Source of the DNA: a virus
Lineage: Duplodnaviria > Caudoviricetes
IMG/VR virus record: IMGVR_UViG_3300035002_000018
Location: 1-47,489 of that record
Reading direction: 5' to 3' (one strand)
DNA: 47,489 nt
The notes under the pieces are model-generated. The model did no database searches. It saw only the letters and a list, made by a program, of their open reading frames with translations, and was not told the origin of the DNA. Numbering within the stretch: the stretch's first letter is position 1; every line of letters begins with the position of its first letter. This document shows positions 9,719 to 33,547 of this stretch, piece after piece. A program made the translations under genes and the position numbers.

Positions 9719-10630
9719 ATGGCAAGACCTGATAAAAAAGGGATAGACTACTACCCAAAGGATATTGATGCAGACCAGGACGATAAGCTCGGGATGATCA
9801 TTGGTGAATTCGGGGTAAAAGGCGAATTACTGTTCGATAAAGTATGCGGCTGGATATATAAACATGAAGGGTACTATATGAAGTGGGAGGAAGACGTACA
9901 ACTGAGGTTCTTGAGACGCTACGATTACTGTGGTTTCTCCTTGAGTTTCATAAATGAAGTTGTGCCGAGGTTCATTAAGTGGGGTTTGTTTGATAAAACC
10001 GTGTTTGATGAGTTTCAGATTCTCACAAGTAAAAGGATCCAAGAGACATGGATGGAAGCCAGTAGAAAGCGAACCGGCAGAAGATACATTAAAAAAGTAT
10101 GGCTTTTAGAGGTTTCTTCCGGCTTACAGGCGGAAGAAATGGACGAAAAGGCGGAAGAAACACCACAAAGTAAACTAAAGGAAACTAAAGGAAATGAAAT
10201 TAAAGAAAAGAGTAGAGCTAAAGCTCTTGTCGTTGCTGACGCAACTCCGGACAATGCCCAACAGGTTTTGAGAAGTGAATACACAGCGTTGGTAAAGCAG
10301 CTGACGGGCAACGATCTGAAAACGGTGATCACAGGCCTGAAGGAGTTTATCCACGATAAGAAGCCCCTATTCATTGAGCCCTACCAGGAATTCTGGAACC
10401 TGTTCGCAGGTAGTTACGGGCTGGCCAAAGTGGAAGTGCTCAGCGAAAGCCGTAAAAGAAAATTCAAGACCCGCATATCAGAACCCGGGTTTGATTTCCT
10501 AAAGATCCTGGAAAAGATAAAAGCCAGCCCCCTGCTTCGGGGAAAATCGGGCGACTGGAAAGTAAGCTTTGACTGGATACTGGAGAACGATAACAACTAT
10601 GCTAAAATCTTAAACGGGAATTACGATTAA
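9719..10630 (+). CDS. Phage replication initiator (DUF4373 N-terminus)
   Basis: MARP.KKGIDYYP.D; LTSKRIQ; C-terminal SFDWIL..NNY.KIL.GNY; directly upstream of dnaB. Confidence 0.85.
   Translation: MARPDKKGIDYYPKDIDADQDDKLGMIIGEFGVKGELLFDKVCGWIYKHEGYYMKWEEDVQLRFLRRYDYCGFSLSFINEVVPRFIKWGLFDKTVFDEFQILTSKRIQETWMEASRKRTGRRYIKKVWLLEVSSGLQAEEMDEKAEETPQSKLKETKGNEIKEKSRAKALVVADATPDNAQQVLRSEYTALVKQLTGNDLKTVITGLKEFIHDKKPLFIEPYQEFWNLFAGSYGLAKVEVLSESRKRKFKTRISEPGFDFLKILEKIKASPLLRGKSGDWKVSFDWILENDNNYAKILNGNYD
10113..10204 (+). repeat. Iteron-like repeats inside the initiator gene (putative origin)
   Basis: AGGCGGAAGAAA at 10128 and 10149, inverted TTTCTTCCG at 10113, AAACTAAAGG x2 at 10172/10182. Confidence 0.55.
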
Positions 10631-12126
10631 TGCAACCACAGAACCAAAATAAAGACCGGGCCGTAAGGAGGAAACCATCACTGGAGCTTTCCACCATGGT
10701 GTATGGTAAAGTGCCACCACAGGCAAAGGAGCTGGAAGAGGCTATCCTTGGCGGTATGATGCTGGAAAAGGGTGCGGTGGACCGGGCTATCGAATTCATT
10801 AAACCGGAAAGTTTTTACGTTGAAGCCCACCAGCTGATTTTTAAAGCCATACTGGACCTGCACGGTAAAGGATGGCCCATTGATATCCTGACAGTAACCG
10901 AACTGCTGAGGGAGAAAGGTGAACTGGAAATGGTCGGCGGTCCGTACTATGTAACGAAGCTCACCAATGCCGTTGTTTCTTCTGCGAACATCGAGTTTCA
11001 CAGCAAGATCATTGCTCAGTATCACATGAAACGGGAACTGATCAGGATTGGTGGGGAACTGATTGCTGGTGGTTACGAGGATATGACCGATGTGCAGGAC
11101 CTGCTGGACGAGCATGAGAAAAGTATGACGATGATCACCACACAGCGATCTGGTGACAACGTGCAGGGCATTGATGCCGGCCTGGTGAAGATGATCCAGC
11201 GGGTAGAAAGTCTTCGGATGAGTAAGAAGGATATTACCGGTGTTACCAGCGGCTTCCCATCACTTGACCGGATAACATACGGTTGGCAGAATACAGACCT
11301 GATCATCCTGGCAGCAAGACCGGCAGTAGGTAAAACCGCTTTTGCCTTGAACATTGCACGGAATGCAGCCAAAGCAGCAGAGCCGACACCAGTAGCTTTT
11401 TTCTCCCTTGAAATGAGTACAGAACAATTAGTGATGAGGATCGGTGCGGCCGAGAGTGAAATATGGCTTGAGAAAATTGCAAGAGGAAAGATGGAAGAGT
11501 TTGAAATGAAACAGCTGTATACAAAAGGTGTTCAAGCACTGGCCAAGGCCCCCATATTTATTGACGATACTCCCGCCCTGAACATTTTTGAACTCCGGGC
11601 CAAATGCCGCAGGCTGAAAAACAAACACGATATCGGACTGGTGATCATTGACTACCTGCAGTTGATGAGAGGTGTAAATGAATCGAGAGGAAACCGGGAG
11701 CAGGAGATCAGCCAGATATCGAGAAACCTGAAAGGCCTGGCCAAGGAATTGAACATTCCAATTATTGCACTGAGCCAGTTGAGTAGGAAAGTAGAAGACC
11801 GGAAGGGAGATAAAATGCCCCAGCTGAGTGACCTCCGGGAATCCGGCGCCATCGAACAGGATGCAGATATGGTAATGTTCATGTATCGCCCGGAATATTA
11901 TGATCAGAACTCCAATGAAATGGGAGAAAGCACCAAAGGACTCACATTAATAGACATCGCAAAACACAGGAACGGTGTATTGGCCAGGGGAAATGAAGCG
12001 GTGAAGCTGAGAGCCTTATTGCATATCCAAAAATTCGTGGAATGGCAGGATGATATCGTTACCTCATTAAAACCTATTGGTGGGAACTGGAGGCCGGTTG
12101 CACAAGACGACGACGAAGCTTTTTAA
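10630..12126 (+). CDS. dnaB: Replicative DNA helicase
   Basis: AARPAVGKT Walker A, FSLEM, IIDYLQL, SQLSR, LSDLRESGAIEQDAD, AKHRNG. Confidence 0.97.
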   Translation: MQPQNQNKDRAVRRKPSLELSTMVYGKVPPQAKELEEAILGGMMLEKGAVDRAIEFIKPESFYVEAHQLIFKAILDLHGKGWPIDILTVTELLREKGELEMVGGPYYVTKLTNAVVSSANIEFHSKIIAQYHMKRELIRIGGELIAGGYEDMTDVQDLLDEHEKSMTMITTQRSGDNVQGIDAGLVKMIQRVESLRMSKKDITGVTSGFPSLDRITYGWQNTDLIILAARPAVGKTAFALNIARNAAKAAEPTPVAFFSLEMSTEQLVMRIGAAESEIWLEKIARGKMEEFEMKQLYTKGVQALAKAPIFIDDTPALNIFELRAKCRRLKNKHDIGLVIIDYLQLMRGVNESRGNREQEISQISRNLKGLAKELNIPIIALSQLSRKVEDRKGDKMPQLSDLRESGAIEQDADMVMFMYRPEYYDQNSNEMGESTKGLTLIDIAKHRNGVLARGNEAVKLRALLHIQKFVEWQDDIVTSLKPIGGNWRPVAQDDDEAF

Positions 12127-12142
12127 ACCTAAAAATATAACG

Positions 12143-12343
12143 ATGAAAAAAGTAAAAGTGTATATCAAAAAGTCCAGGAACGGGCAGTTCTATTTTACAA
12201 TCCATGCAGCCAATGGTAAAAAGCTTTGCCATTCAGAAACCTATACCCGGAAAGACAGTTGCCGGGAGGGCTTTGTGGTGATGAGGTTGGGCCTCAACTG
12301 TCACGATCTTGAAGTAATTGATACAACAGAAAAAAAGAAATGA
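12143..12343 (+). CDS. DUF1508 (YegP-like) protein
   Basis: GQFYFTIHAANGKKLCHSETYTRKDSC motif. Confidence 0.8.
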   Translation: MKKVKVYIKKSRNGQFYFTIHAANGKKLCHSETYTRKDSCREGFVVMRLGLNCHDLEVIDTTEKKK

Positions 12344-12453
12344 GCTGGTCCGAAAAACATATTAAAGACTTGCAGTCCCGGCGAGTGGGTGAAGAAATTT
12401 CGGGTTTGAGTGCGAATCCCGATGGGGCCGCAAAGAAAGACACAGGAGTTTGA
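12340..12453 (+). pseudogene. Probable 5' stub of a phage gene (MSWSEKHIKDL...) fused to the cassette array
   Basis: ATGA-coupled start; after ~10 codons it runs into cassette leader sequence. Confidence 0.4.
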
Positions 12454-12506
12454 AAAACGGGTGGATTTCGTTCCCTAAGAACCCCAAAAAAGAACAAAGA
12501 GAAAAT

Positions 12507-13061
12507 ATGAACTTATTTGATTTAAATGTACATACGGTAAAAAATGGGCATGAAAAATTTGCTACTGACTTTCAGACAAAGCCTGAAGTTTGTAAGTATA
12601 TGGTATCTCTGTTACCAACAGGGGTAAGGACAGTATTAGAGCCAACACCGGGCATTGGGAATATTGTTGATGCCTTAGCTGGTTATGATGTAACAGCTCC
12701 AAAAGACTTTTTTTTATTGGATAAGAAAAGATTTGATGCAGTTGTAATGAACCCTCCATTTTCTTCTAAGTACGCAAATATGGAAAATGCGCCTGCAGGA
12801 ATAAATAAACACAGGATGAGGTTGGGGTACCATATACTTACTGAGTGTATGGAAATGTCTGATATCATAATTGCTTTAATGCCGTGGTTTACTATTTCTG
12901 ACAGCGATGTAAGGTTGAGATATTTAAAAAAATTTGGTTTAAAATCACTAACAGCCTTGCCAAGAAAAACATTTGAGTATGCAAGGATTCAGACTGTTGT
13001 GATAGAATTACAGAAAGGGTATAAGAGTAAAACGATTTTTGAAGTATATGACTGTCTCTAA
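12507..13061 (+). CDS. Small N6-adenine/N4-cytosine DNA methyltransferase (cassette 1 cargo)
   Basis: FQTKPEV, VLEPTPGIGN (SAM-binding), MNPPF catalytic motif. Confidence 0.85.
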   Translation: MNLFDLNVHTVKNGHEKFATDFQTKPEVCKYMVSLLPTGVRTVLEPTPGIGNIVDALAGYDVTAPKDFFLLDKKRFDAVVMNPPFSSKYANMENAPAGINKHRMRLGYHILTECMEMSDIIIALMPWFTISDSDVRLRYLKKFGLKSLTALPRKTFEYARIQTVVIELQKGYKSKTIFEVYDCL

Positions 13062-13099
13062 TCTCTTTGTTCTTTGGGGTTCTTAGGGATTGCGGTCCC

Positions 13100-13198
13100 A
13101 TCGGTCTCAGGCGTTTGCGCCGGACTGCGATAGATGCGAAGCAGATAGTAAAGCAGGACGGTGCAACTTTTGGGTTTGTCTGGCGCAAAAGCCATGTT
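13100..13198 (+). other. attC-like site 1 (ATC...GTT)
   Basis: Stem GGCGTTTGCGCCGGAC (13110-13125) / GTCTGGCGCAAAAGCC (13178-13193). Confidence 0.75.
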
Positions 13199-13240
13199 CA
13201 CGGCAGTGCCAGCTTTTAATGAAATTAAAAACTATAAGAT

Positions 13241-13504
13241 ATGAACATTAACAGGGAATTGCTAATGGATTTTTTTAAATATTACTGTGACACAACTGAT
13301 GACGAATATCTCGGTAGAGAAGAAGTCATTGTTGATGACTATATCCTATTTAAAAAATATCCATGTGGGATGCCAAACCCAAAAGAGCCTGAGACCGTTC
13401 ACGGCAATGAGGCGGAAAAAGTAGTTTGCAAATGTAATAACCCACATTTATATCAAGACGCTGGGTTTAATTGGAGATGTTCATTATGTGGCAACCCGTT
13501 TTAA
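13241..13504 (+). CDS. Hypothetical protein with C-terminal Zn-ribbon (cassette 2 cargo)
   Basis: CKC..PH...WRCSLCG. Confidence 0.7.
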   Translation: MNINRELLMDFFKYYCDTTDDEYLGREEVIVDDYILFKKYPCGMPNPKEPETVHGNEAEKVVCKCNNPHLYQDAGFNWRCSLCGNPF

Positions 13505-13561
13505 TTGCAAACGGTTTACGCCGTCCGCCGCTTTCCTGGCTGTTGCGGCGGCATTGCCGTG

Positions 13562-13681
13562 AACGGATAGGGCTTGCAGAAGTTGGGGCATTTCTGCAAT
13601 CGGTTCAGCCCATAGGTGCAGCTTGGATTTAGGTGAAGATGAGTTTTAGGGTCAAGCCCCAATTTTTGCAAACCCAATGTT
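13562..13681 (+). other. attC-like site 2 (AAC...GTT)
   Basis: Stem GGGCTTGCAGAAGTTGGGGC (13570-13589) / GCCCCAATTTTTGCAAACCC (13656-13675). Confidence 0.85.
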
Positions 13682-13802
13682 CTATGCAGTGCCATCATGC
13701 TACTTCCTGTCGCTGAATAGAATTAATAAAGCTGGGTGTATTTGTTTTTTGTGCTGCGGAGCTTCTTAAAAATGTATTTTCTAACAATTAAATAAAAATA
13801 AA

Positions 13803-14195
13803 ATGGCAAATGAAACAAGTAAACAAAGGTTAGCAAACCTTATTCAAAGTTATGAGCAGGTAGTTAAATCCGCTCAATCATTGTACGATGATGCTGAATT
13901 AAAAAGTTGGGCTATTGACCGCTCACTTGAAGCACAAGGAAAAATAACAGAAATAAAGAAAAAGCTGAAAGATACTTTTTCAATTGATTATGATGCTGAC
14001 ACTGCAAAAACAAAGGTAATAAAAGAAGGTAGCAGCGTTGAAGTTTTGGTTAATCACATGGACGGCATGAAAGGCTCGACAGCCACAATCAAAAGCTATT
14101 CATTGCCTGCTAATATTTCCGACATTACGATGAAGGACGGCATGAAAATGAATAACCATAAGTGGTTAACCAACGATGAGGTTAAACTAAAGTAA
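13803..14195 (+). CDS. DUF1541 (YdhK-like) domain protein (cassette 3 cargo)
   Basis: GSSVEVLVNHMDGMKGSTATI ... NHKWLTNDEV resembles the DUF1541 repeat. Confidence 0.7.
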   Translation: MANETSKQRLANLIQSYEQVVKSAQSLYDDAELKSWAIDRSLEAQGKITEIKKKLKDTFSIDYDADTAKTKVIKEGSSVEVLVNHMDGMKGSTATIKSYSLPANISDITMKDGMKMNNHKWLTNDEVKLK

Positions 14196-14220
14196 TTATT
14201 CACTTTTAAATTCAAAAAAA

Positions 14221-14292
14221 ATGGGAAAAATGAAACCTGGTATGCCAATGCCAAAACCGAAACCAAAGCCGAAACCAAAGCCGAAAAAGTAA
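14221..14292 (+). CDS. 23-aa Pro-Lys repeat micropeptide MGKMKPGMPMPKPKPKPKPKPKK
   Basis: A-rich leader; varied Pro/Lys codons; followed by a hairpin. Confidence 0.45.
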   Translation: MGKMKPGMPMPKPKPKPKPKPKK

Positions 14293-14298
14293 GGCTTT

Positions 14299-14333
14299 AA
14301 TGTAAGCCGGATGATTATTGTCTGGCTTACATT
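14299..14333 (+). terminator. Stem-loop (possible terminator) inside cassette 3
   Basis: AATGTAAGCCGGA / TCTGGCTTACATT. Confidence 0.5.
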
Positions 14334-14420
14334 TCATTAAAGAACGAAAAGTGTGGCGTTGGCAAAAAAACAAATACATGATATGTCGCTCAATAGAATT
14401 ACAGGTGCGGCATTGCATAG

Positions 14421-14524
14421 AACGGCCCGGAAATTGCCGAAGGCCGCCCCGTTCACTGCGAAGCAGAGAGTAAAGGGGAGGACTGAGGCCGAAACAAACT
14501 GGCGGCTTTTGGCAATTTTATGTA
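14421..14524 (+). other. attC-like site 3 (AAC...GTA)
   Basis: Stem AAATTGCCGAAGGCCGCC (14431-14448) / GGCGGCTTTTGGCAATTT (14501-14518). Confidence 0.8.
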
Positions 14525-14664
14525 GGCCGCCGTCCGGCTGGTGGGTAAGGGTTTGTTGAGTTTTCCGGGCCGTAGGGGCCGCCAAGTAACGCCGGGAGTT
14601 TGAAGAATGAAAACGGAGGAGTTACGTTCCTCGCAACCAAATTGTAAACATTAAAAGAAAAATT

Positions 14665-14976
14665 ATGTGCGAAGAAATCAAAAATGCAACACAAGCATTT
14701 AAACAGCATGACGCCTGTGATGAATGTGGTAAAAGAACAGACGGGTTAATGACCTGCACATATTCACATGATGGCAGCGAAACAAAACTGTGCCCAGATT
14801 GCATTGAGGGTAGCGGTTTTTGTTTACGATGCGGATATTATAGTGCAGGTATGAGCAGTTTTGATTTTTCCGATATGCCCGGATATTGCTCTGAGTGTAG
14901 GGATGAAATAAAGGCAGAAGAAGATGACGACCCTGATTTTGATGCCATATACAATCCGTGGGAATATCCGGATTAA
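14665..14976 (+). CDS. Cys-rich zinc-finger protein with acidic tail (cassette 4 cargo)
   Basis: Four CxxC motifs (CDEC, CPDC, CLRC, CSEC). Confidence 0.75.
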   Translation: MCEEIKNATQAFKQHDACDECGKRTDGLMTCTYSHDGSETKLCPDCIEGSGFCLRCGYYSAGMSSFDFSDMPGYCSECRDEIKAEEDDDPDFDAIYNPWEYPD

Positions 14977-15015
14977 TTTTTCTTGCTTCTATTTGGTTGC
15001 GAGGATGGCGGTCCC

Positions 15016-15328
15016 TACGAAAACGCATTTACGCCGTAGGGCGAATTGAAGATAAAATAAAAACATATTCTTATGCGCAGTCATATTCTATTGTTGAGAG
15101 ATAATTTAAAAGCTCAGTTAGAAAGAGCATATCAGGATGTTGAAAAATACGAATCAACCGAAGACCCTGATGGAGAAGTAGTTTACAACGAAGGTAAAGC
15201 GCAGGGCAAAGCCAATGCTCTTTCTAACGTTATTCAAAAGCTGAATTTTATTTTATCGGCAAATGAGTCCGAAGGCGGAGATAAAGATGGCAAGTAGTGA
15301 ATTGCCCTATGGCGTTAAATGCAGTGTT
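15016..15328 (+). other. attC-like site 4 (TAC...GTT) with a gene in its loop
   Basis: Stem GCATTTACGCCGTAGGGCGAATT (15025-15047) / AATTGCCCTATGGCGTTAAATGC (15300-15322). Confidence 0.75.
15073..15297 (+). CDS. 74-aa hypothetical protein (cassette 5 cargo)
   Basis: A-rich leader; ORF fills the hairpin loop. Confidence 0.65.
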   Translation: MRSHILLLRDNLKAQLERAYQDVEKYESTEDPDGEVVYNEGKAQGKANALSNVIQKLNFILSANESEGGDKDGK

Positions 15329-15473
15329 GTAGGCCGTCCCGACCTATCACGCCATACGCAGCCATCTTTATCAGCAGGGCAAATGCGTTTTCGTTGTCGG
15401 CCATTTTAGAGCCTGTGGACGCATTAGTCCGAGGTACGAGGACGGCGGACACTGCACGGGAGGGATGGCCGAC

Positions 15474-15658
15474 AACGGATTTCGCATTGCCGATGTTTGA
15501 GAGTAGTAAAAAATAAACAATATGAAAGATAATTTGATTCCACTTGTTACAGCTTCATTAATGGAGTGTGTAGTTATATTGATTCTTGTAATTGTTTATT
15601 TTTTACGAGAACGAAAACAGCGGTGAAAAAGACGGTCAAATAGCGGCAAAGCGATGAT
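15474..15658 (+). other. attC-like site 5 (AAC...GAT) with a small gene in its loop
   Basis: Stem GCATTGCCGATGTTTGA (15484-15500) / TCAAATAGCGGCAAAGC (15636-15652). Confidence 0.7.
15522..15626 (+). CDS. 34-aa single-TM peptide MKDNLIPLVTASLMECVVILILVIVYFLRERKQR (cassette 6 cargo)
   Basis: Read by hand; A-rich leader, hydrophobic core, basic C-terminus. Confidence 0.5.
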   Translation: MKDNLIPLVTASLMECVVILILVIVYFLRERKQR

Positions 15659-15825
15659 ATACGAAGTTTGCTGCCGCTGTGAACGACTCCGTCTTTTTCT
15701 TGCGAAATCCGATATACAAAATTTAGGTAGTGGGAGTTGCCCGGTCTAAAAAGTCGAAAATAGATAGACTTCCGGGCAACGAAGCTACCGTGTGTGATGG
15801 TCTTGTGCGGCAGCAAATTTTGTAT

Positions 15826-15866
15826 ATCATATACTTATGCGAACCATAGTTTAAAATCAACAACTT
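15826..15866 (-). other. Candidate attI-like primary insertion site next to the recombinase start
   Basis: Last core ATC (15826-15828) is followed by non-palindromic sequence, then the recombinase ATG 38 bp later. Confidence 0.55.
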
Positions 15867-16703
15867 ATGATTGAGCATTATCAGGCTGAAATAAGAAAGA
15901 AACTGAACCAGCAATGGAGGATGGATCGCAAATCAATAGTGACCATCAAAGGCTATAACTATGCCCTGGACCTGCTGCTGGAGAAACTGCCGGTTTACTT
16001 TGACGAGTACAACACGGACGACCTGGTGGCTTATTGCCTAACTATTCCTGGCATCAACAAACGGGACCTGCAGATCACCATGATAAGGGCGGTGTACCGG
16101 ATCATGCATAATACAAACCTGGACTGGAAGCTATTCCCATTCATCAAACGAAAGAAAAAGATCCAGCCACGGTTCAATACACAGGAGGTACAGGCATTGA
16201 TCAACGCTACGGATAATATCGGACACAAGCTGATAATGCTCACTCAATTTGCAGCCGGCCTCCGGGTGGGTGAAGTGGTGATCTTGAAACGGAAGGATTT
16301 GTTTAAAGAAGAAGGGTTCTTATTCATCGATGGGGAAGGCATCAGTAACGACCGGTTTGCACCATTGCCTGATAATGTGTTCAGGATGCTGGATGAATTC
16401 AGTAAAGACAAAAAGGAAAATGCTTTTATCTGGACGGGTCAATACGGCGGACACCTAAGCACCAGGTCAGTTCAGCAGATCATCAACCAGTGCAAAGCAA
16501 AGGCAGGTATCAGTCACACAGCTAACAGTCATGGTCTCCGCAGAGGCTATGCTACCGAATCGGTTCGTGGCGGAGCTCATATGCTTGCTCTCCGGGATAT
16601 CCTAGGGCACTCAGATATAAGAACCACCCAGATATATACCGGTACCAGCCATGAATTTTTGAAAGAACAATTTAATCCGGCAGCTGAACTGAAAGTTGCA
16701 TGA
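15867..16703 (+). CDS. Tyrosine recombinase (XerD/integron-integrase-like, no IntI-specific insertion)
   Basis: AGLRVGEV, HGLRR, LGHSDIRTTQIY; the usual KG..DR loop reads GEGISNDR. Confidence 0.92.
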   Translation: MIEHYQAEIRKKLNQQWRMDRKSIVTIKGYNYALDLLLEKLPVYFDEYNTDDLVAYCLTIPGINKRDLQITMIRAVYRIMHNTNLDWKLFPFIKRKKKIQPRFNTQEVQALINATDNIGHKLIMLTQFAAGLRVGEVVILKRKDLFKEEGFLFIDGEGISNDRFAPLPDNVFRMLDEFSKDKKENAFIWTGQYGGHLSTRSVQQIINQCKAKAGISHTANSHGLRRGYATESVRGGAHMLALRDILGHSDIRTTQIYTGTSHEFLKEQFNPAAELKVA

Positions 16704-17019: not shown

Positions 17020-17529
17020 ATGGTTAGTAAACCAAAAAAGAAAGCAGCCCAAAGAGGGAGGCCCACAAAGTATTTACCTGCGTATTGCGACCAGGCAAGA
17101 AAGCTATGTCTATTAGGCGCAACTGATAAAGATTTAGCCAACTTCTTCGATGTAAATGAAGATACCATTCATCAGTGGAAAAAAGATTATCCGAAATTTT
17201 CCGAGTCCATAAAAGAAGGGAAATCGGTAGCTGATGCAAATATTGCTGATCGCTTATATCAAAGGGCAATGGGATTTGAACACGATAGCGAAGAGATCAA
17301 AGTAATTCCCACAGGCAAAGGCTCTAAGATTCAGAGGGTGCCTATCCGAAAGATTTATCCTCCCGATACCGTTGCTGCCATATTCTGGCTAAAGAACAGG
17401 CAAAAGGAAAAATGGAGAGACAAGATTGAGCAGGATATAACCAGCGGGGGGGAGAAGATTACAGCATTATCAGCTTTGCCACCAGATGATCTGAAGGCAT
17501 TACTGGGAATCAAAAAGAAACTTGGTTAA
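17020..17529 (+). CDS. terS: Terminase small subunit
   Basis: GRPTKY, LCLLGATDKDLANFFDV..DTI..WK, PPDTVAAIFWLKNR...WRDK. Confidence 0.9.
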   Translation: MVSKPKKKAAQRGRPTKYLPAYCDQARKLCLLGATDKDLANFFDVNEDTIHQWKKDYPKFSESIKEGKSVADANIADRLYQRAMGFEHDSEEIKVIPTGKGSKIQRVPIRKIYPPDTVAAIFWLKNRQKEKWRDKIEQDITSGGEKITALSALPPDDLKALLGIKKKLG

Positions 17530-18929
17530 TGGATGCGTTACAGCTTCTTAACATACCGGCAATTGAGATAGAAAAAAAGCTCTTTGAACTTGGCGATTAT
17601 GATTTTATCACCCAAACAGAAAACGGAAAGAATCTAAAGCAAGAACTGGCCTTAAAAGAACTGCACAGAGGATTAGCCAGGGAAGTTTTATACGGCGGTG
17701 CTGCTGGTGGTGCTAAATCATGGACCGGCGCAAGCTGGTTGACTTTTATGTGCGAGTGCTATCCAGGCACCAGGTGGTTTGTTGGCCGGGAATCGTTGAC
17801 CGATCTAAGGAATGCAACCCTGTTAACGTTCACAAAGGTGTTCAAGGCTTATGGGGTCGAGGGAGTGATTTACAAAGACAAGGACCACTACCTGCAATTC
17901 GCAAACGGAAGCCGAATAGATTTCATCGATCTTGCTTTCTACCCGAAGGACAAGGAATATGAACGATTCGGTTCGTTTGAATATACTGGTGGATGGATTG
18001 AGGAAGCAGGGGAGGTGAATTTTGGGGCTTATGATGTGTTGAAAACGAGGATAGGTAGGCATTTGAACGATCATTATGGCATCAGACCAGTGCTGTTCAT
18101 TACTTGTAACCCGAAAAAGAACTGGCTTTATTACGAGTTTTTTACACCCTGGAAGCTGAAAAAACTATCAAAGACAAGATTATTTATTCAGGCTTTTGTA
18201 CAGGACAATCCGGCCATTGAAAGCACATACATCGAACAGCTGAGGTCGCTGAATGATAAGTCAAAGAGGGAAAGGTTATTACTCGGGAATTGGGATTATG
18301 AAGATGATCCCGCAGCTCTTTGCGAATTTGATGCAATCATTGACATGTTCACTAACGATCATGTGAAGCCAGGGGAGAAAAAAATAAGTGCTGATTTGGC
18401 AATGAAGGGTAGGGACCGATTTGTAGCCGGCTGCGCAAGCGGGTTGATAGTTAAAATAGAGATTGATAAAGAGTATTCGCCTGGTAAAGAAATTGAGGCT
18501 GATCTGAAGAACCTGATGATCAAATCAGCTGTACCGAGAAGCAAAACAGTAGTTGACAGTGATGGTTTAGGATCTTATTTGGAAAGCTACTTAACCGGCA
18601 TTTATGAATTTCATGGTGGTGCCAAACCTTTTGATTTAAAAGAGTACGGCAACCTTAAAAGCGAGTGTGGTTATAAGCTGGCAGAGGTAGTTAATAAGCG
18701 ATTGATAAAGGTCATTTGCAGCGAGGATCAAAAGCAAAGGATTATCGAGGAGATGGGGGCGCTGAGGGCCAAAGATGTGGATGCAGATGAGACGAGAAAA
18801 CGGATAATCGCTAAAGATCAAATGAAAGAGTTACTGGGGAGGTCACCGGATTATCTTGACATGCTGATTATGTTGATGGTTTTTGATATCAAGCCTAAAA
18901 GAACTGGTAGTACGGCTGTTGAACGCTAA
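17529..18929 (+). CDS. terL: Terminase large subunit
   Basis: YGGAAGGAKS Walker A, WIEEAGE Walker B, TCNP, ADLA..G.D, RSPDYLD. Confidence 0.93.
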   Translation: MDALQLLNIPAIEIEKKLFELGDYDFITQTENGKNLKQELALKELHRGLAREVLYGGAAGGAKSWTGASWLTFMCECYPGTRWFVGRESLTDLRNATLLTFTKVFKAYGVEGVIYKDKDHYLQFANGSRIDFIDLAFYPKDKEYERFGSFEYTGGWIEEAGEVNFGAYDVLKTRIGRHLNDHYGIRPVLFITCNPKKNWLYYEFFTPWKLKKLSKTRLFIQAFVQDNPAIESTYIEQLRSLNDKSKRERLLLGNWDYEDDPAALCEFDAIIDMFTNDHVKPGEKKISADLAMKGRDRFVAGCASGLIVKIEIDKEYSPGKEIEADLKNLMIKSAVPRSKTVVDSDGLGSYLESYLTGIYEFHGGAKPFDLKEYGNLKSECGYKLAEVVNKRLIKVICSEDQKQRIIEEMGALRAKDVDADETRKRIIAKDQMKELLGRSPDYLDMLIMLMVFDIKPKRTGSTAVER

Positions 18930-32590: not shown

Positions 32591-33547
32591 ATGCCAACGA
32601 ATACACTTATATATCCACATATCAACGGCCTGACGGTTTACAAGGAAACACCGGACACGGATGACCGGTTTTTATCCAAACACATGGACGACTGGCAATT
32701 TTCCGATACTATCCTTCCATGGGAAGAGATTACCGATTGGTGTCAGCCGTGGATGAGTTCGGATACTACCAAATTGCAACTGCAGAGTACCTACGGCCCA
32801 GTTAATCTGAAGATGTACCGTCTTGAGGATGACGTGCTGATAGATACAATCCCGTTTGTGAACATAATCGGCAACTTTAATAACACAGACCTGAGAATTT
32901 ACGAGGTAGATGTTGATCTATCTACCTACGACGAGGGCTGTTATTATTTCCGAATAACGTTTGGAAGCCCGGTCGCACTAACCTTGCGAACAAATAATAT
33001 TGAACTTTCGGAAATTATTGAAAATACTTTACTTTTGGAGTACAAGCATCCTTCGTTCAGGGAGGATATGATCTTTGAAACTGGCATATTCCCATCAGTG
33101 AGAGTACCTGGATGTATTAAGTACGAAAGAACGGCAAGTAAAAGCACAGTGTATGAAGACCAGCCGCTCAATAACGAGGTGTTACGGTCCGTGAATTACA
33201 GGATATCGAAACTCTATATCGGGATAAATGAATACGGCCAGGGCTCAGGTATTCCTGATCACTTCGCTGATAAGATAGCAAGAATGATCGGCTGCTCAGA
33301 TTTATTATTCGACGGCCGGTATTATGCGAAGAAATCTGAAGGTGATGACCTCGAGGCAAAGGATTCTGAAGGCTACCCTATGAGAGGTTGGACGATTGAT
33401 TTGAGAGACAAGTTCAACCGGGCAAGTAAACACTACGTGAACGAGATCGGGCAGAATGCACAGGTTGCAGTGATGATCAATATTGATGGCAAGGGATTCG
33501 CAAATAGCAATTCCGGCAATGTAACAACAATAACAGGATTTCAATAA
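32591..33547 (+). CDS. Minor tail protein
   Basis: Position in the tail module. Confidence 0.55.
   Translation: MPTNTLIYPHINGLTVYKETPDTDDRFLSKHMDDWQFSDTILPWEEITDWCQPWMSSDTTKLQLQSTYGPVNLKMYRLEDDVLIDTIPFVNIIGNFNNTDLRIYEVDVDLSTYDEGCYYFRITFGSPVALTLRTNNIELSEIIENTLLLEYKHPSFREDMIFETGIFPSVRVPGCIKYERTASKSTVYEDQPLNNEVLRSVNYRISKLYIGINEYGQGSGIPDHFADKIARMIGCSDLLFDGRYYAKKSEGDDLEAKDSEGYPMRGWTIDLRDKFNRASKHYVNEIGQNAQVAVMINIDGKGFANSNSGNVTTITGFQ

Follow-up and report, generated by a model that had tools for sequence, protein, structure and literature searches.

In the window, i.e., the whole stretch of 47,489 nucleotides analysed here, a Bacteroidota phage carries an integron-like row of cassettes adjoining a Xer-type recombinase without insertion, and in four of the five complete units there is an antisense stretch of 23-24 nt that copies the junction of the unit's two ends. 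This copy, termed site 2, may well be a fold switch that controls the direction of recombination, by which a cassette would enter the array and tend to stay. That a switch in single-stranded DNA acts on recombination is rather likely; the particular direction of the switch, i.e., lowered excision with insertion from the circle, has about an even chance of being right. Each of the four two-site units also has a longer, bulged antisense copy, site 1, located 50-201 nt upstream of the perfect copy. The two-site layout, in which site 2 is accompanied by a helper helix (x with x') and by a hairpin predicted to bury site 1, is new here and is found in four unrelated cassettes. The features are summarized in Table 1.

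Table 1. Cassettes, sites and recombinase of the array (positions in the window).
Feature	Position	Strand	Remarks
Cassette 1 (C1), left-truncated	12349..13102	+	cargo N6 DNA methyltransferase 12507-13061
C1 site 2	12411..12433	+	12421-12433 pairs with right end 13090-13102, one G.T
U2, two-site cassette	13103..13564	+	87-aa ORF 13241-13504 crosses site 2
U2 helper segment x and site 1	13167..13211	+	x 13167-13177; bulged attC-like arm, core 13196-13198
U2 x' and site 2	13375..13409	+	x' 13375-13385, then directly site 2 13387-13409 (perfect)
U3, ordinary single-site cassette	13565..14423	+	site 1 core 13679-13681; without site 2
U3 cargo		+	DUF1541 protein 13803-14195 and 23-aa Pro-Lys ORF
U4, two-site cassette	14424..15018	+	Cys-rich 103-aa ORF 14665-14976, 3' of site 2
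U4 module	14493..14642	+	x 14493-14500; site 1 core 14522-14524; x' 14550-14557
U4 module, continued		+	site 2 14562-14584; hairpin y 14586-14625; distal arm 14628-14642 pairs with 14991-15005
U5, two-site cassette	15019..15476	+	74-aa ORF 15073-15297, 5' of site 1
U5 module	15280..15404	+	x 15280-15291; site 1 core 15326-15328; x' 15361-15372; site 2 15381-15404
U6, two-site cassette adjoining recombinase	15477..15828	+	34-aa ORF 15522-15626, 5' of site 1
U6 module	15625..15789	+	x 15625-15635; site 1 core 15656-15658; x' 15689-15699
U6 module, continued		+	site 2 15701-15724; hairpin y 15726-15789
Array end, candidate attI-like docking position	15826..15866	+	candidate by position; no left arm after last core
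XerA-like tyrosine recombinase, 278 aa	15867..16703	+	R133, H222, R225, H248, Y257 kept

The original prediction drew the units to end in a WWC core, and these borders are borne out. Two arms per unit agree with one and the same pair of ends, which fixes the borders, and a contig of another run (X4) is in accord: it has U3 whole between different neighbours, with coinciding borders at 13562 and 14423 and 0 other letters. Perfect matches also arise with mirror-drawn borders. Borders on the mirror (GTT) side were rejected, as both arms would then need to match a neighbour and the X4 contig also speaks against them. Gain or loss of whole units at a conserved core, a trait of integrons, is seen for U3 in that contig and in four Flavobacterium phages, which differ by whole units at TAAC. 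A joint leading from a unit end back to its own start was listed in none of the four runs compared (contigs only), and the run comparison listed no strand-change joint either; the ORFs and arms of the array all face one way. These contigs gave no circle, folded strand or recombination product, and the one compared run that is labelled RNA is marked as probably DNA. All cargo ORFs are encoded on the + strand, where the G.T pairs are found and the folding energy is lower.

The four antisense copies were confirmed where they had been placed, composed of 10+13 letters in U2 (perfect) and U4 (one G.T), 12+12 in U5 and 10+14 in U6, as was the half match in C1. The best matches in the four two-site units comprise 23, 22, 22 and 23 of 23 letters, against a maximum of 15-17 when the borders were fixed and the unit interior was shuffled 300 times per unit. 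All 11 exact 10+10 matches of the whole 47.5-kb window sit within the array, and U3 has no perfect copy (best 13/23). In C1, site 2 is still accompanied by the helper helix and the downstream hairpin; its site 1 has decayed and its left arm is missing. The left half of its site 2 has no partner at any cassette border in the window; the only exact 10-mer copy of this half, at 33493, was rejected, as it lies within an ORF and no WWC core precedes it.

The antisense copy had been regarded both as an unusual element and as a sign of circular intermediates. The former stands for the second, bulge-free copy, which is absent from 128 of 128 distinct other units, and falls for the copy itself: an attC arm is such a copy, and all single-site cassettes have one. 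Since every cassette of the system has a bulged, attC-like antisense arm, such a copy alone is no evidence of circles. Moreover, when the integrated strand is folded as a linear molecule with flanks of 20 nt, both cassette ends are paired with site 2 in three of four units, so that circles are not shown by site 2 itself and the claim was overstated.

Upon circularisation in silico, as the original prediction suggested, the freely folded circles choose site 2 in all four units, with DNA and RNA parameters and a core-pair probability of at least 0.999. The site-1 fold costs 25.4, 21.6, 14.6 and 16.1 kcal/mol more in these circles and 0.0 in the control U3. A gap of 15-25 kcal/mol counts against a switch in balance and amounts to a trap that closes in one direction. 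The predicted folds and the gap support the conformational lock that had been listed among the options. Single-site control circles place the core on site 1 in 41 of 42 cases, and the coding strand folds lower in 42/42; in the array, site 1 duplexes are lower on the + strand in 5/5 units. The imperfect, strand-biased hairpin with unpaired spacer known from integrons is thus present in both sets, and site 1 of the two-site units retains the unpaired-spacer geometry of single-site cassettes. The x:x' helix is better than shuffled partners in all four units (p = 0.0005, 0.028, <0.0005 and 0.002; 2000 shuffles). Counts of loop motifs did not separate DNA from RNA, and both parameter sets give one fold.

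Integron-type cassettes are thought to leave and enter through one folded site, the direction being provided by protein, strand choice and replication. We propose that the two-site cassettes may set it by folding. As long as the single-stranded stretch is limited to the left part, the left arm and site 1 would form the bulged attC-like hairpin, as predicted for truncated folds of the left part in three of four units. With the entire cassette exposed as a single strand, x would pair with x', site 1 would fold back on itself and leave its core in a loop, and both cassette ends would be captured by site 2, in the circle as a 23-24-bp duplex across the junction. As the attC-like site would be only transient, excision and stray recombination would be lowered. 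The circle would offer a double-strand-like core that a Xer-type recombinase could insert, comparable to the folded DNA of CTX phage, and cassettes of this kind would enter the array and then tend to stay.

Selection on pairing within a single strand is indicated by three compensatory changes, a retained G.T pair and an island of conservation. Between U4 and C1, three of 13 site-2 pairs are changed on both sides, none is broken, and the G.T is at the same place. The covariation anticipated for homologous cassettes is found for this pair. L083, a U4 homologue in another phage, speaks against the proposed switch: it has a different left arm, with which its site 2 pairs imperfectly (about 7/9 with a bulge), and in its fold site 2 is not paired with that arm. 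The P0347 protein and the U2 ORF share essentially only residues 46-65, coded by 13376-13435, a stretch that comprises x', site 2 and the start of hairpin y. In contigs of run X2, the match resumes at 13374 in one and at 15689 in another, where x' begins in U2 and in U6, respectively. The loop letters around the changing site 2 are kept among U4, C1 and L083, and a contig of run X3 has different letters immediately before the same hairpin. Hairpin y is 97% paired with one compensatory pair, which is not significant with three sequences (178/500 shuffles). We also note an A/G-rich bulge before the inner stem of y in U2, U4, U6, C1 and L083, not in U5.

The recombinase belongs to PF00589 and aligns to XerA-type proteins without insertion. 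With the IntI model TIGR02249, the two matching stretches reach 64.7 bits, far below the cut-off of 265, and the IntI-specific insertion, which PMC8138268 calls essential, is absent. The five residues given in Table 1 are invariant in 11 of 11 homologues. The catalytic R-K-H-R-H/W-Y set is incomplete: residues 155-162 (β2-β3 loop) contain no lysine, and the loop is acidic, in all 11 close homologues. R163 lies within five residues of the loop, and an arginine occurs there in lysine-bearing relatives too. The loop lysine is described as essential in Cre and Xer (PMC2943603), so the neighbouring recombinase may not be the acting enzyme. The last core is without a left arm, 38 nt before the recombinase start, and the ends of other arrays are laid out alike.

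Integron cassettes and the units of this array share the head-to-tail order, a 3-nt core, an imperfect hairpin on a preferred strand, units that come and go as a whole at that core, and a tyrosine recombinase at the array end. In an integron attC, too, the folded arm copies the circle junction imperfectly in antisense, like site 1. Phage-borne attC clusters exist (Qi et al. 2023, PMC9892861), and attC recombines as a folded single strand (PMC8946536). Unlike integrons, the array has a recombinase without the IntI insertion, an asymmetric unpaired spacer, and ORFs on the folding strand, the mirror image of the opposite-strand ORFs of integrons. The second, perfect arm and the helper helices also differ from integrons as described in the accessible portions of PMC9892861 and PMC8946536.

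The single-stranded circle of CTX attP(+) pairs two inverted site copies into a duplex for Xer, and the fold sets the direction (PMC4246890). For the cassette circle, a fold of inverted copies into a duplex is predicted in four of four units, and this duplex may be a recombinase substrate. CTX employs one fold, dif-like sequences and host XerCD, in contrast to a cassette-specific site, a competing attC-like fold and a cassette array as target; the arms vary between cassettes. IS110/IS1111 elements resemble the units in that the internal sequence of a bridge RNA or seekRNA can pair with the element's own circle junction. These, however, use a DEDD recombinase and an RNA whose two loops bind both strands (PMC11208160), whereas the copy here is one contiguous antisense run adjoining a tyrosine recombinase; no DEDD family was found in the 28 ORFs scanned of the 93 listed for the window.

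The closest relatives are TAAC-bounded arrays, sampled as about 125 units from IMG/VR records, Flavobacterium vB_FspS phages and Polaribacter phage P12002L. Left arm, site 1, right arm and borders are as in the present array, of which U3 is a plain member of this group. Their units end in TAAC or CAAC in 123/128 cases (TAAC in 112/128), and the two-site units in GAAC, CTAC, CAAC, TATC and CATC. With no second two-site cassette among the 128 units, of which about 3-5 are probably spurious, the layout rests on one array. The heuristic cassette detector missed U4 and U5 in one scan, which also skipped GC-rich loci (>52%); two-site cassettes with a poor site 1 are thus covered only by the separate site-2 scans. 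In overlapping scans of 0.94, 1.46 and 0.74 Mb, no antisense junction with at least 22 Watson-Crick pairs was found outside the window. Motif scans gave one true homologue, L083; the other matches (one in genomes and five of six in another scan) were put down to chance, as was a candidate in L146, which lies within an ORF. No further two-site cassette came from 21 phages examined as complete or almost complete records (40 stretches), no such array from the scanned loci of terminase relatives (80 kept of 580), and no cassette homologue in named phages or plasmids from BLAST with the array. Scans based on the recombinase gave no close homologue in IMG/VR, and the best in JGI metagenomes reached 34%. 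Rfam 15 gave no match at gathering score (one at E 3.3, 21.7 bits vs 45). Literature searches gave no description of a second perfect arm, although such sites could be among the phage attC sites tabulated for PMC9892861, and none of TAAC-bounded arrays of Bacteroidota phages beyond single attC calls.

The same fold could also serve the opposite direction to lock-and-insert. As an excision splint, site 2 would hold both ends adjacent in the integrated strand, in a half-Holliday-like form, and one exchange would free the circle. The flanked linear folds of three units fit this reading, as does a product duplex that is perfect over the sealing point. Nevertheless, single-site cassettes bridge their ends through site 1 and move without site 2, and the presence of site 2 in five of the six units here fits retention better than eager excision, if weakly; we consider the splint rather unlikely. 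Also unlikely is a fixed scaffold, made up of x, site 1, x', guide and hairpin y, in which site 2 serves as a programmable guide slot and through which a family of lysine-less tyrosine recombinases would recognise cassette junctions by base pairing and not by their sequence. An RNA whose variable guide, in a fixed scaffold, pairs with junction DNA and directs or licenses the altered tyrosine recombinase would account for the location of site 2 on the coding strand, the loop letters kept around it in U4, C1 and L083, the X3 contig that differs just before the hairpin, the absence of TAAC ends from all five two-site units (112/128 others), and the acidic lysine-free loop. Yet neither a Bacteroidota-type -7 motif on the + strand of the array nor more sigma-70 sites than expected nor an Rfam match was found, the guide would by fold prediction be sequestered by the cassette's own ends, U3 moves with a non-TAAC end and without site 2, and bridge RNAs work with a DEDD enzyme and two loops (PMC11208160). 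This makes the RNA reading distinctly unlikely.

An inverted repeat of 23-24 bp centred on the core has the usual size of a simple tyrosine-recombinase site. With the junction of a double-stranded circle, site 2 could thus form a second recombination site leading to inversion or resolution, and there is one case among related Flavobacterium phages in which nothing but the hairpin between the two cores is exchanged, a hybrid that L083 resembles. The kept G.T and the helper helices, however, make sense only in a single strand, and the uniform orientation and lack of listed strand-change joints also render this very unlikely. A switch in mRNA controlling cargo or downstream genes, with no role in recombination, is consistent with the identical fold under RNA parameters and with ORF leaders of U4, U5 and U6 that pair with their own 3' parts; it is highly improbable given perfect pairing centred on the recombination core in 4/4 units and ORFs that lie before, across or after site 2 depending on the unit. 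Most improbable, and already largely refuted, is the view that site 2 has no function and was left behind by template switching or by the making of the cassette, or that it is an ordinary attC arm under wrong borders, despite the perfect matches under mirror borders, the imperfect L083 and the rarity of the feature (0/128). The two arms matching the same ends fix the borders, in agreement with X4, and the covariation, the conservation island and x:x' in four unrelated units need selection; the helper helices and covariation likewise disfavour the scar of cassette making that the original prediction had entertained.

If the single-strand fold switch is real, it would be a natural DNA device, common to four unrelated cassettes, in which the cassette sets its own direction by strand displacement. 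If the guide slot were true instead, it would constitute a nucleic-acid-guided tyrosine recombinase system with a specificity rewritable via 23 letters. Whether the excised cassette is single-stranded, and how it is folded, becomes testable with a few compensatory mutations, and the switch could explain the persistence of some cassettes in phage arrays.

All four internal antisense copies of the circle junction (23-24 nt) that the original prediction had claimed for these cassettes are found at their positions. The best antisense matches score 23, 22, 22 and 23 of 23, whereas 300 shuffles of each interior between fixed borders reached at most 15-17; U3, an ordinary single-site cassette, scores 13, within chance. 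The exact 10+10 matches in the whole window, 11 in number, are all located in the array. U2, U4, U5 and U6 each carry two antisense copies of their joined ends, whereas U3 carries site 1 alone. Site 1 is long and bulged beside the core; site 2, situated 50-201 nt downstream, is short and perfect precisely where site 1 fails, and the listed mismatches of both are G.T on the + strand. The features are collected in the table. The window corresponds to a provirus record 47,489 bases long, and named relatives of the terminase point to Chitinophagaceae as hosts. We also note that the loop region in each of U2 and U4 contains the mini-hairpin GCGAAGC (13136-13142 and 14458-14464), which is unusually stable in DNA; it is not enriched across single-site cassettes.

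Coordinates of the array, its neighbours and the complementary leader segments
Feature	Position	Remark
dnaB	10630-12126	upstream of array
Cassette C1	ends 13102	left-truncated
Unit U2	13103-13564	two sites
Unit U3	13565-14423	single site
Unit U4	14424-15018	two sites
Unit U5	15019-15476	two sites
Unit U6	15477-15828	two sites
Tyrosine recombinase, 278 aa	15867-16703	between dnaB and terminase genes, with the row of small units
Terminase genes	17020-18929	downstream of array and recombinase
Leader/3' complement pair	14655-14665/14974-14984	
Leader/3' complement pair	15051-15062/15246-15257	
Leader/3' complement pair	15506-15521/15591-15606	
Leader/3' complement pair	13736-13750/14365-14379	

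Consecutive inverted repeats permit two alternative divisions into units, and a mirror drawing of the borders likewise yields perfect matches. The borders of the original prediction are retained because only with them do both arms fit the same left and right end. Comparison with other sequences agrees: record 23 (902 letters) of run X4 covers 13562-14423 with 0 other letters and both flanks foreign. Among four Flavobacterium vB_FspS phages (L139-L142, 1.6-9.8 kb), whose long TAAC-bounded arrays are rich in DNA methyltransferases, the differences consist of entire units delimited at TAAC, with a single place where only the hairpin differs. U3 also contains a 23-aa Met/Pro/Lys repeat ORF (14221-14292), the repeat being 12 nt shorter in the X4 copy. 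A 37-aa ORF (12340-12453) spans site 2 of C1, as an 87-aa ORF does in U2; coding across site 2 looks incidental, since frames vary between homologues.

In predicted circular folds, with DNA or RNA parameters, both ends pair with site 2 in all four two-site units, with a core-pair probability of 0.999 or more. Helper segments are common to the four despite unrelated sequences: x, directly 5' of site 1, is predicted to pair over 8-12 bp with x', directly 5' of site 2 (p against shuffles 0.0005, 0.028, under 0.0005 and 0.002). In these folds site 1 is drawn self-closed with its own core in the loop, and next after site 2 comes a hairpin y. Holding the core on site 1 raises the folding energy by 25.4, 21.6, 14.6 and 16.1 kcal/mol, compared with 0.0 in the control U3. 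Strands ending 25 nt past site 1 are predicted to form the site-1 hairpin with 12, 9, 23 and 4 pairs, clear in three and poor in U6, and when flanks are included in the linear strand, site 2 is predicted to pair with both ends in three of the four units. Each cargo ORF is preceded by an AT-rich leader complementary over 11-16 bp to the 3' part or trailer of the same ORF; entire cassettes are therefore predicted to adopt rod-like folds, with fold z-scores from -6 to -12.

Site 1 is a common feature of a large cassette family. Our detector returned 128 distinct units of this build, a few probably spurious, from IMG/VR records and cultured Flavobacterium and Polaribacter phages, and site 2 is absent from all 128. 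Among single-site units no longer than 520 nt, the core sits on site 1 in the circular fold of 41 of 42, and the coding strand folds lower in 42 of 42. An antisense junction copy is thus normal in such cassettes, and the original interpretation stands only in part, the oddity being the second, perfect copy. Similar hairpin-bounded cassettes adjoin the recombinase gene in metagenome loci with XerA-type recombinases (L007, L008-L010).

The region around site 2 is homologous between U4 and C1, and of 13 site-2/right-end pairs three have changed on both sides, none is broken and one G.T pair is retained. The U2 ORF has two matches among nine candidates, one being itself; the sole other protein has an unrelated N-terminus, is identical over residues 46-60 and shows further identity to 65, and the codons of residues 46-65 (13376-13435) cover x' and site 2 and run into the beginning of y. 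In run X2, matches of contigs restart where x' begins in U2 (13374) and in U6 (15689). One contig of run X3 has the U5 ORF inside the U6 frame (15053-15255 and 15477-15828), next to the recombinase, which indicates that cargo is exchangeable while the frame persists. These X2 and X3 joints, from metagenome contigs aligned at 82% likeness, are weaker evidence. Against selection, the U4 homologue of another phage (L083) has a different left arm, which its site 2 matches only partly. U6-like frames adjoin the recombinase in several contigs, and U6 may occupy the first position permanently while its cargo is exchanged.

The nearest relatives of the recombinase are XerA-type proteins, and alignment to these reveals no IntI insertion, an element described as essential for integron function (PMC8138268). 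Its family is a small one of 11 sequences, which form a single cluster at 50% identity and in which R133, H222, R225, H248 and Y257 are invariant. The β2-β3 loop (residues 155-163, 16329-16355) is acidic in all 11 members and has a lysine in none, whereas XerA, XerD and the next relatives do carry one; the corresponding lysine of Cre acts as general acid, and variants with a substitution there have almost no activity (PMC2943603). The recombinase may be a weak or altered enzyme, or work together with one from the host; for many arrays of this kind the record contains no recombinase (1 of 5 records).

Beside the anatomy, borders and covariation, which are directly observed, the coding strand is predicted to possess two exclusive folds, of which site 2 wins once the whole cassette is single-stranded. 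The bulged site 1 would then exist only transiently, so that excision would be damped along with stray recombination. The circle would present a perfect core ready to be inserted, comparable to CTX phage, where two inverted sites fold to give one-way integration (PMC4246890). Alternatively, this fold could act as a splint for excision. A guide RNA acting through site 2 is possible but unsupported: no promoter signal in the array, Rfam match or RNA reads were found, and bridge RNAs, as described in PMC11208160, differ in enzyme and layout. No circle junction is listed in four runs, which consist of contigs only, a form that loses rare molecules.

The site-1 geometry of single-site cassettes is that of the attC bottom strand (PMC8946536), whereas their ORFs are reversed relative to classical integrons. 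Qi et al. (2023) reported attC clusters in phages, one of which, from a Polaribacter phage, recombined with IntI1 (PMC9892861); section 3.4 and further passages of that paper make no mention of a second arm, and a literature search of main articles found no published description of a perfect one. New in this analysis are the helix of helper segments, the burial of site 1, the energy gap between folds and the conservation island. Judged by its integrase and by ORF orientation, the array does not belong to the integron family; its two-site cassettes carry a novel integron-like site. The cultured phages L139-L142 are a ready experimental system.
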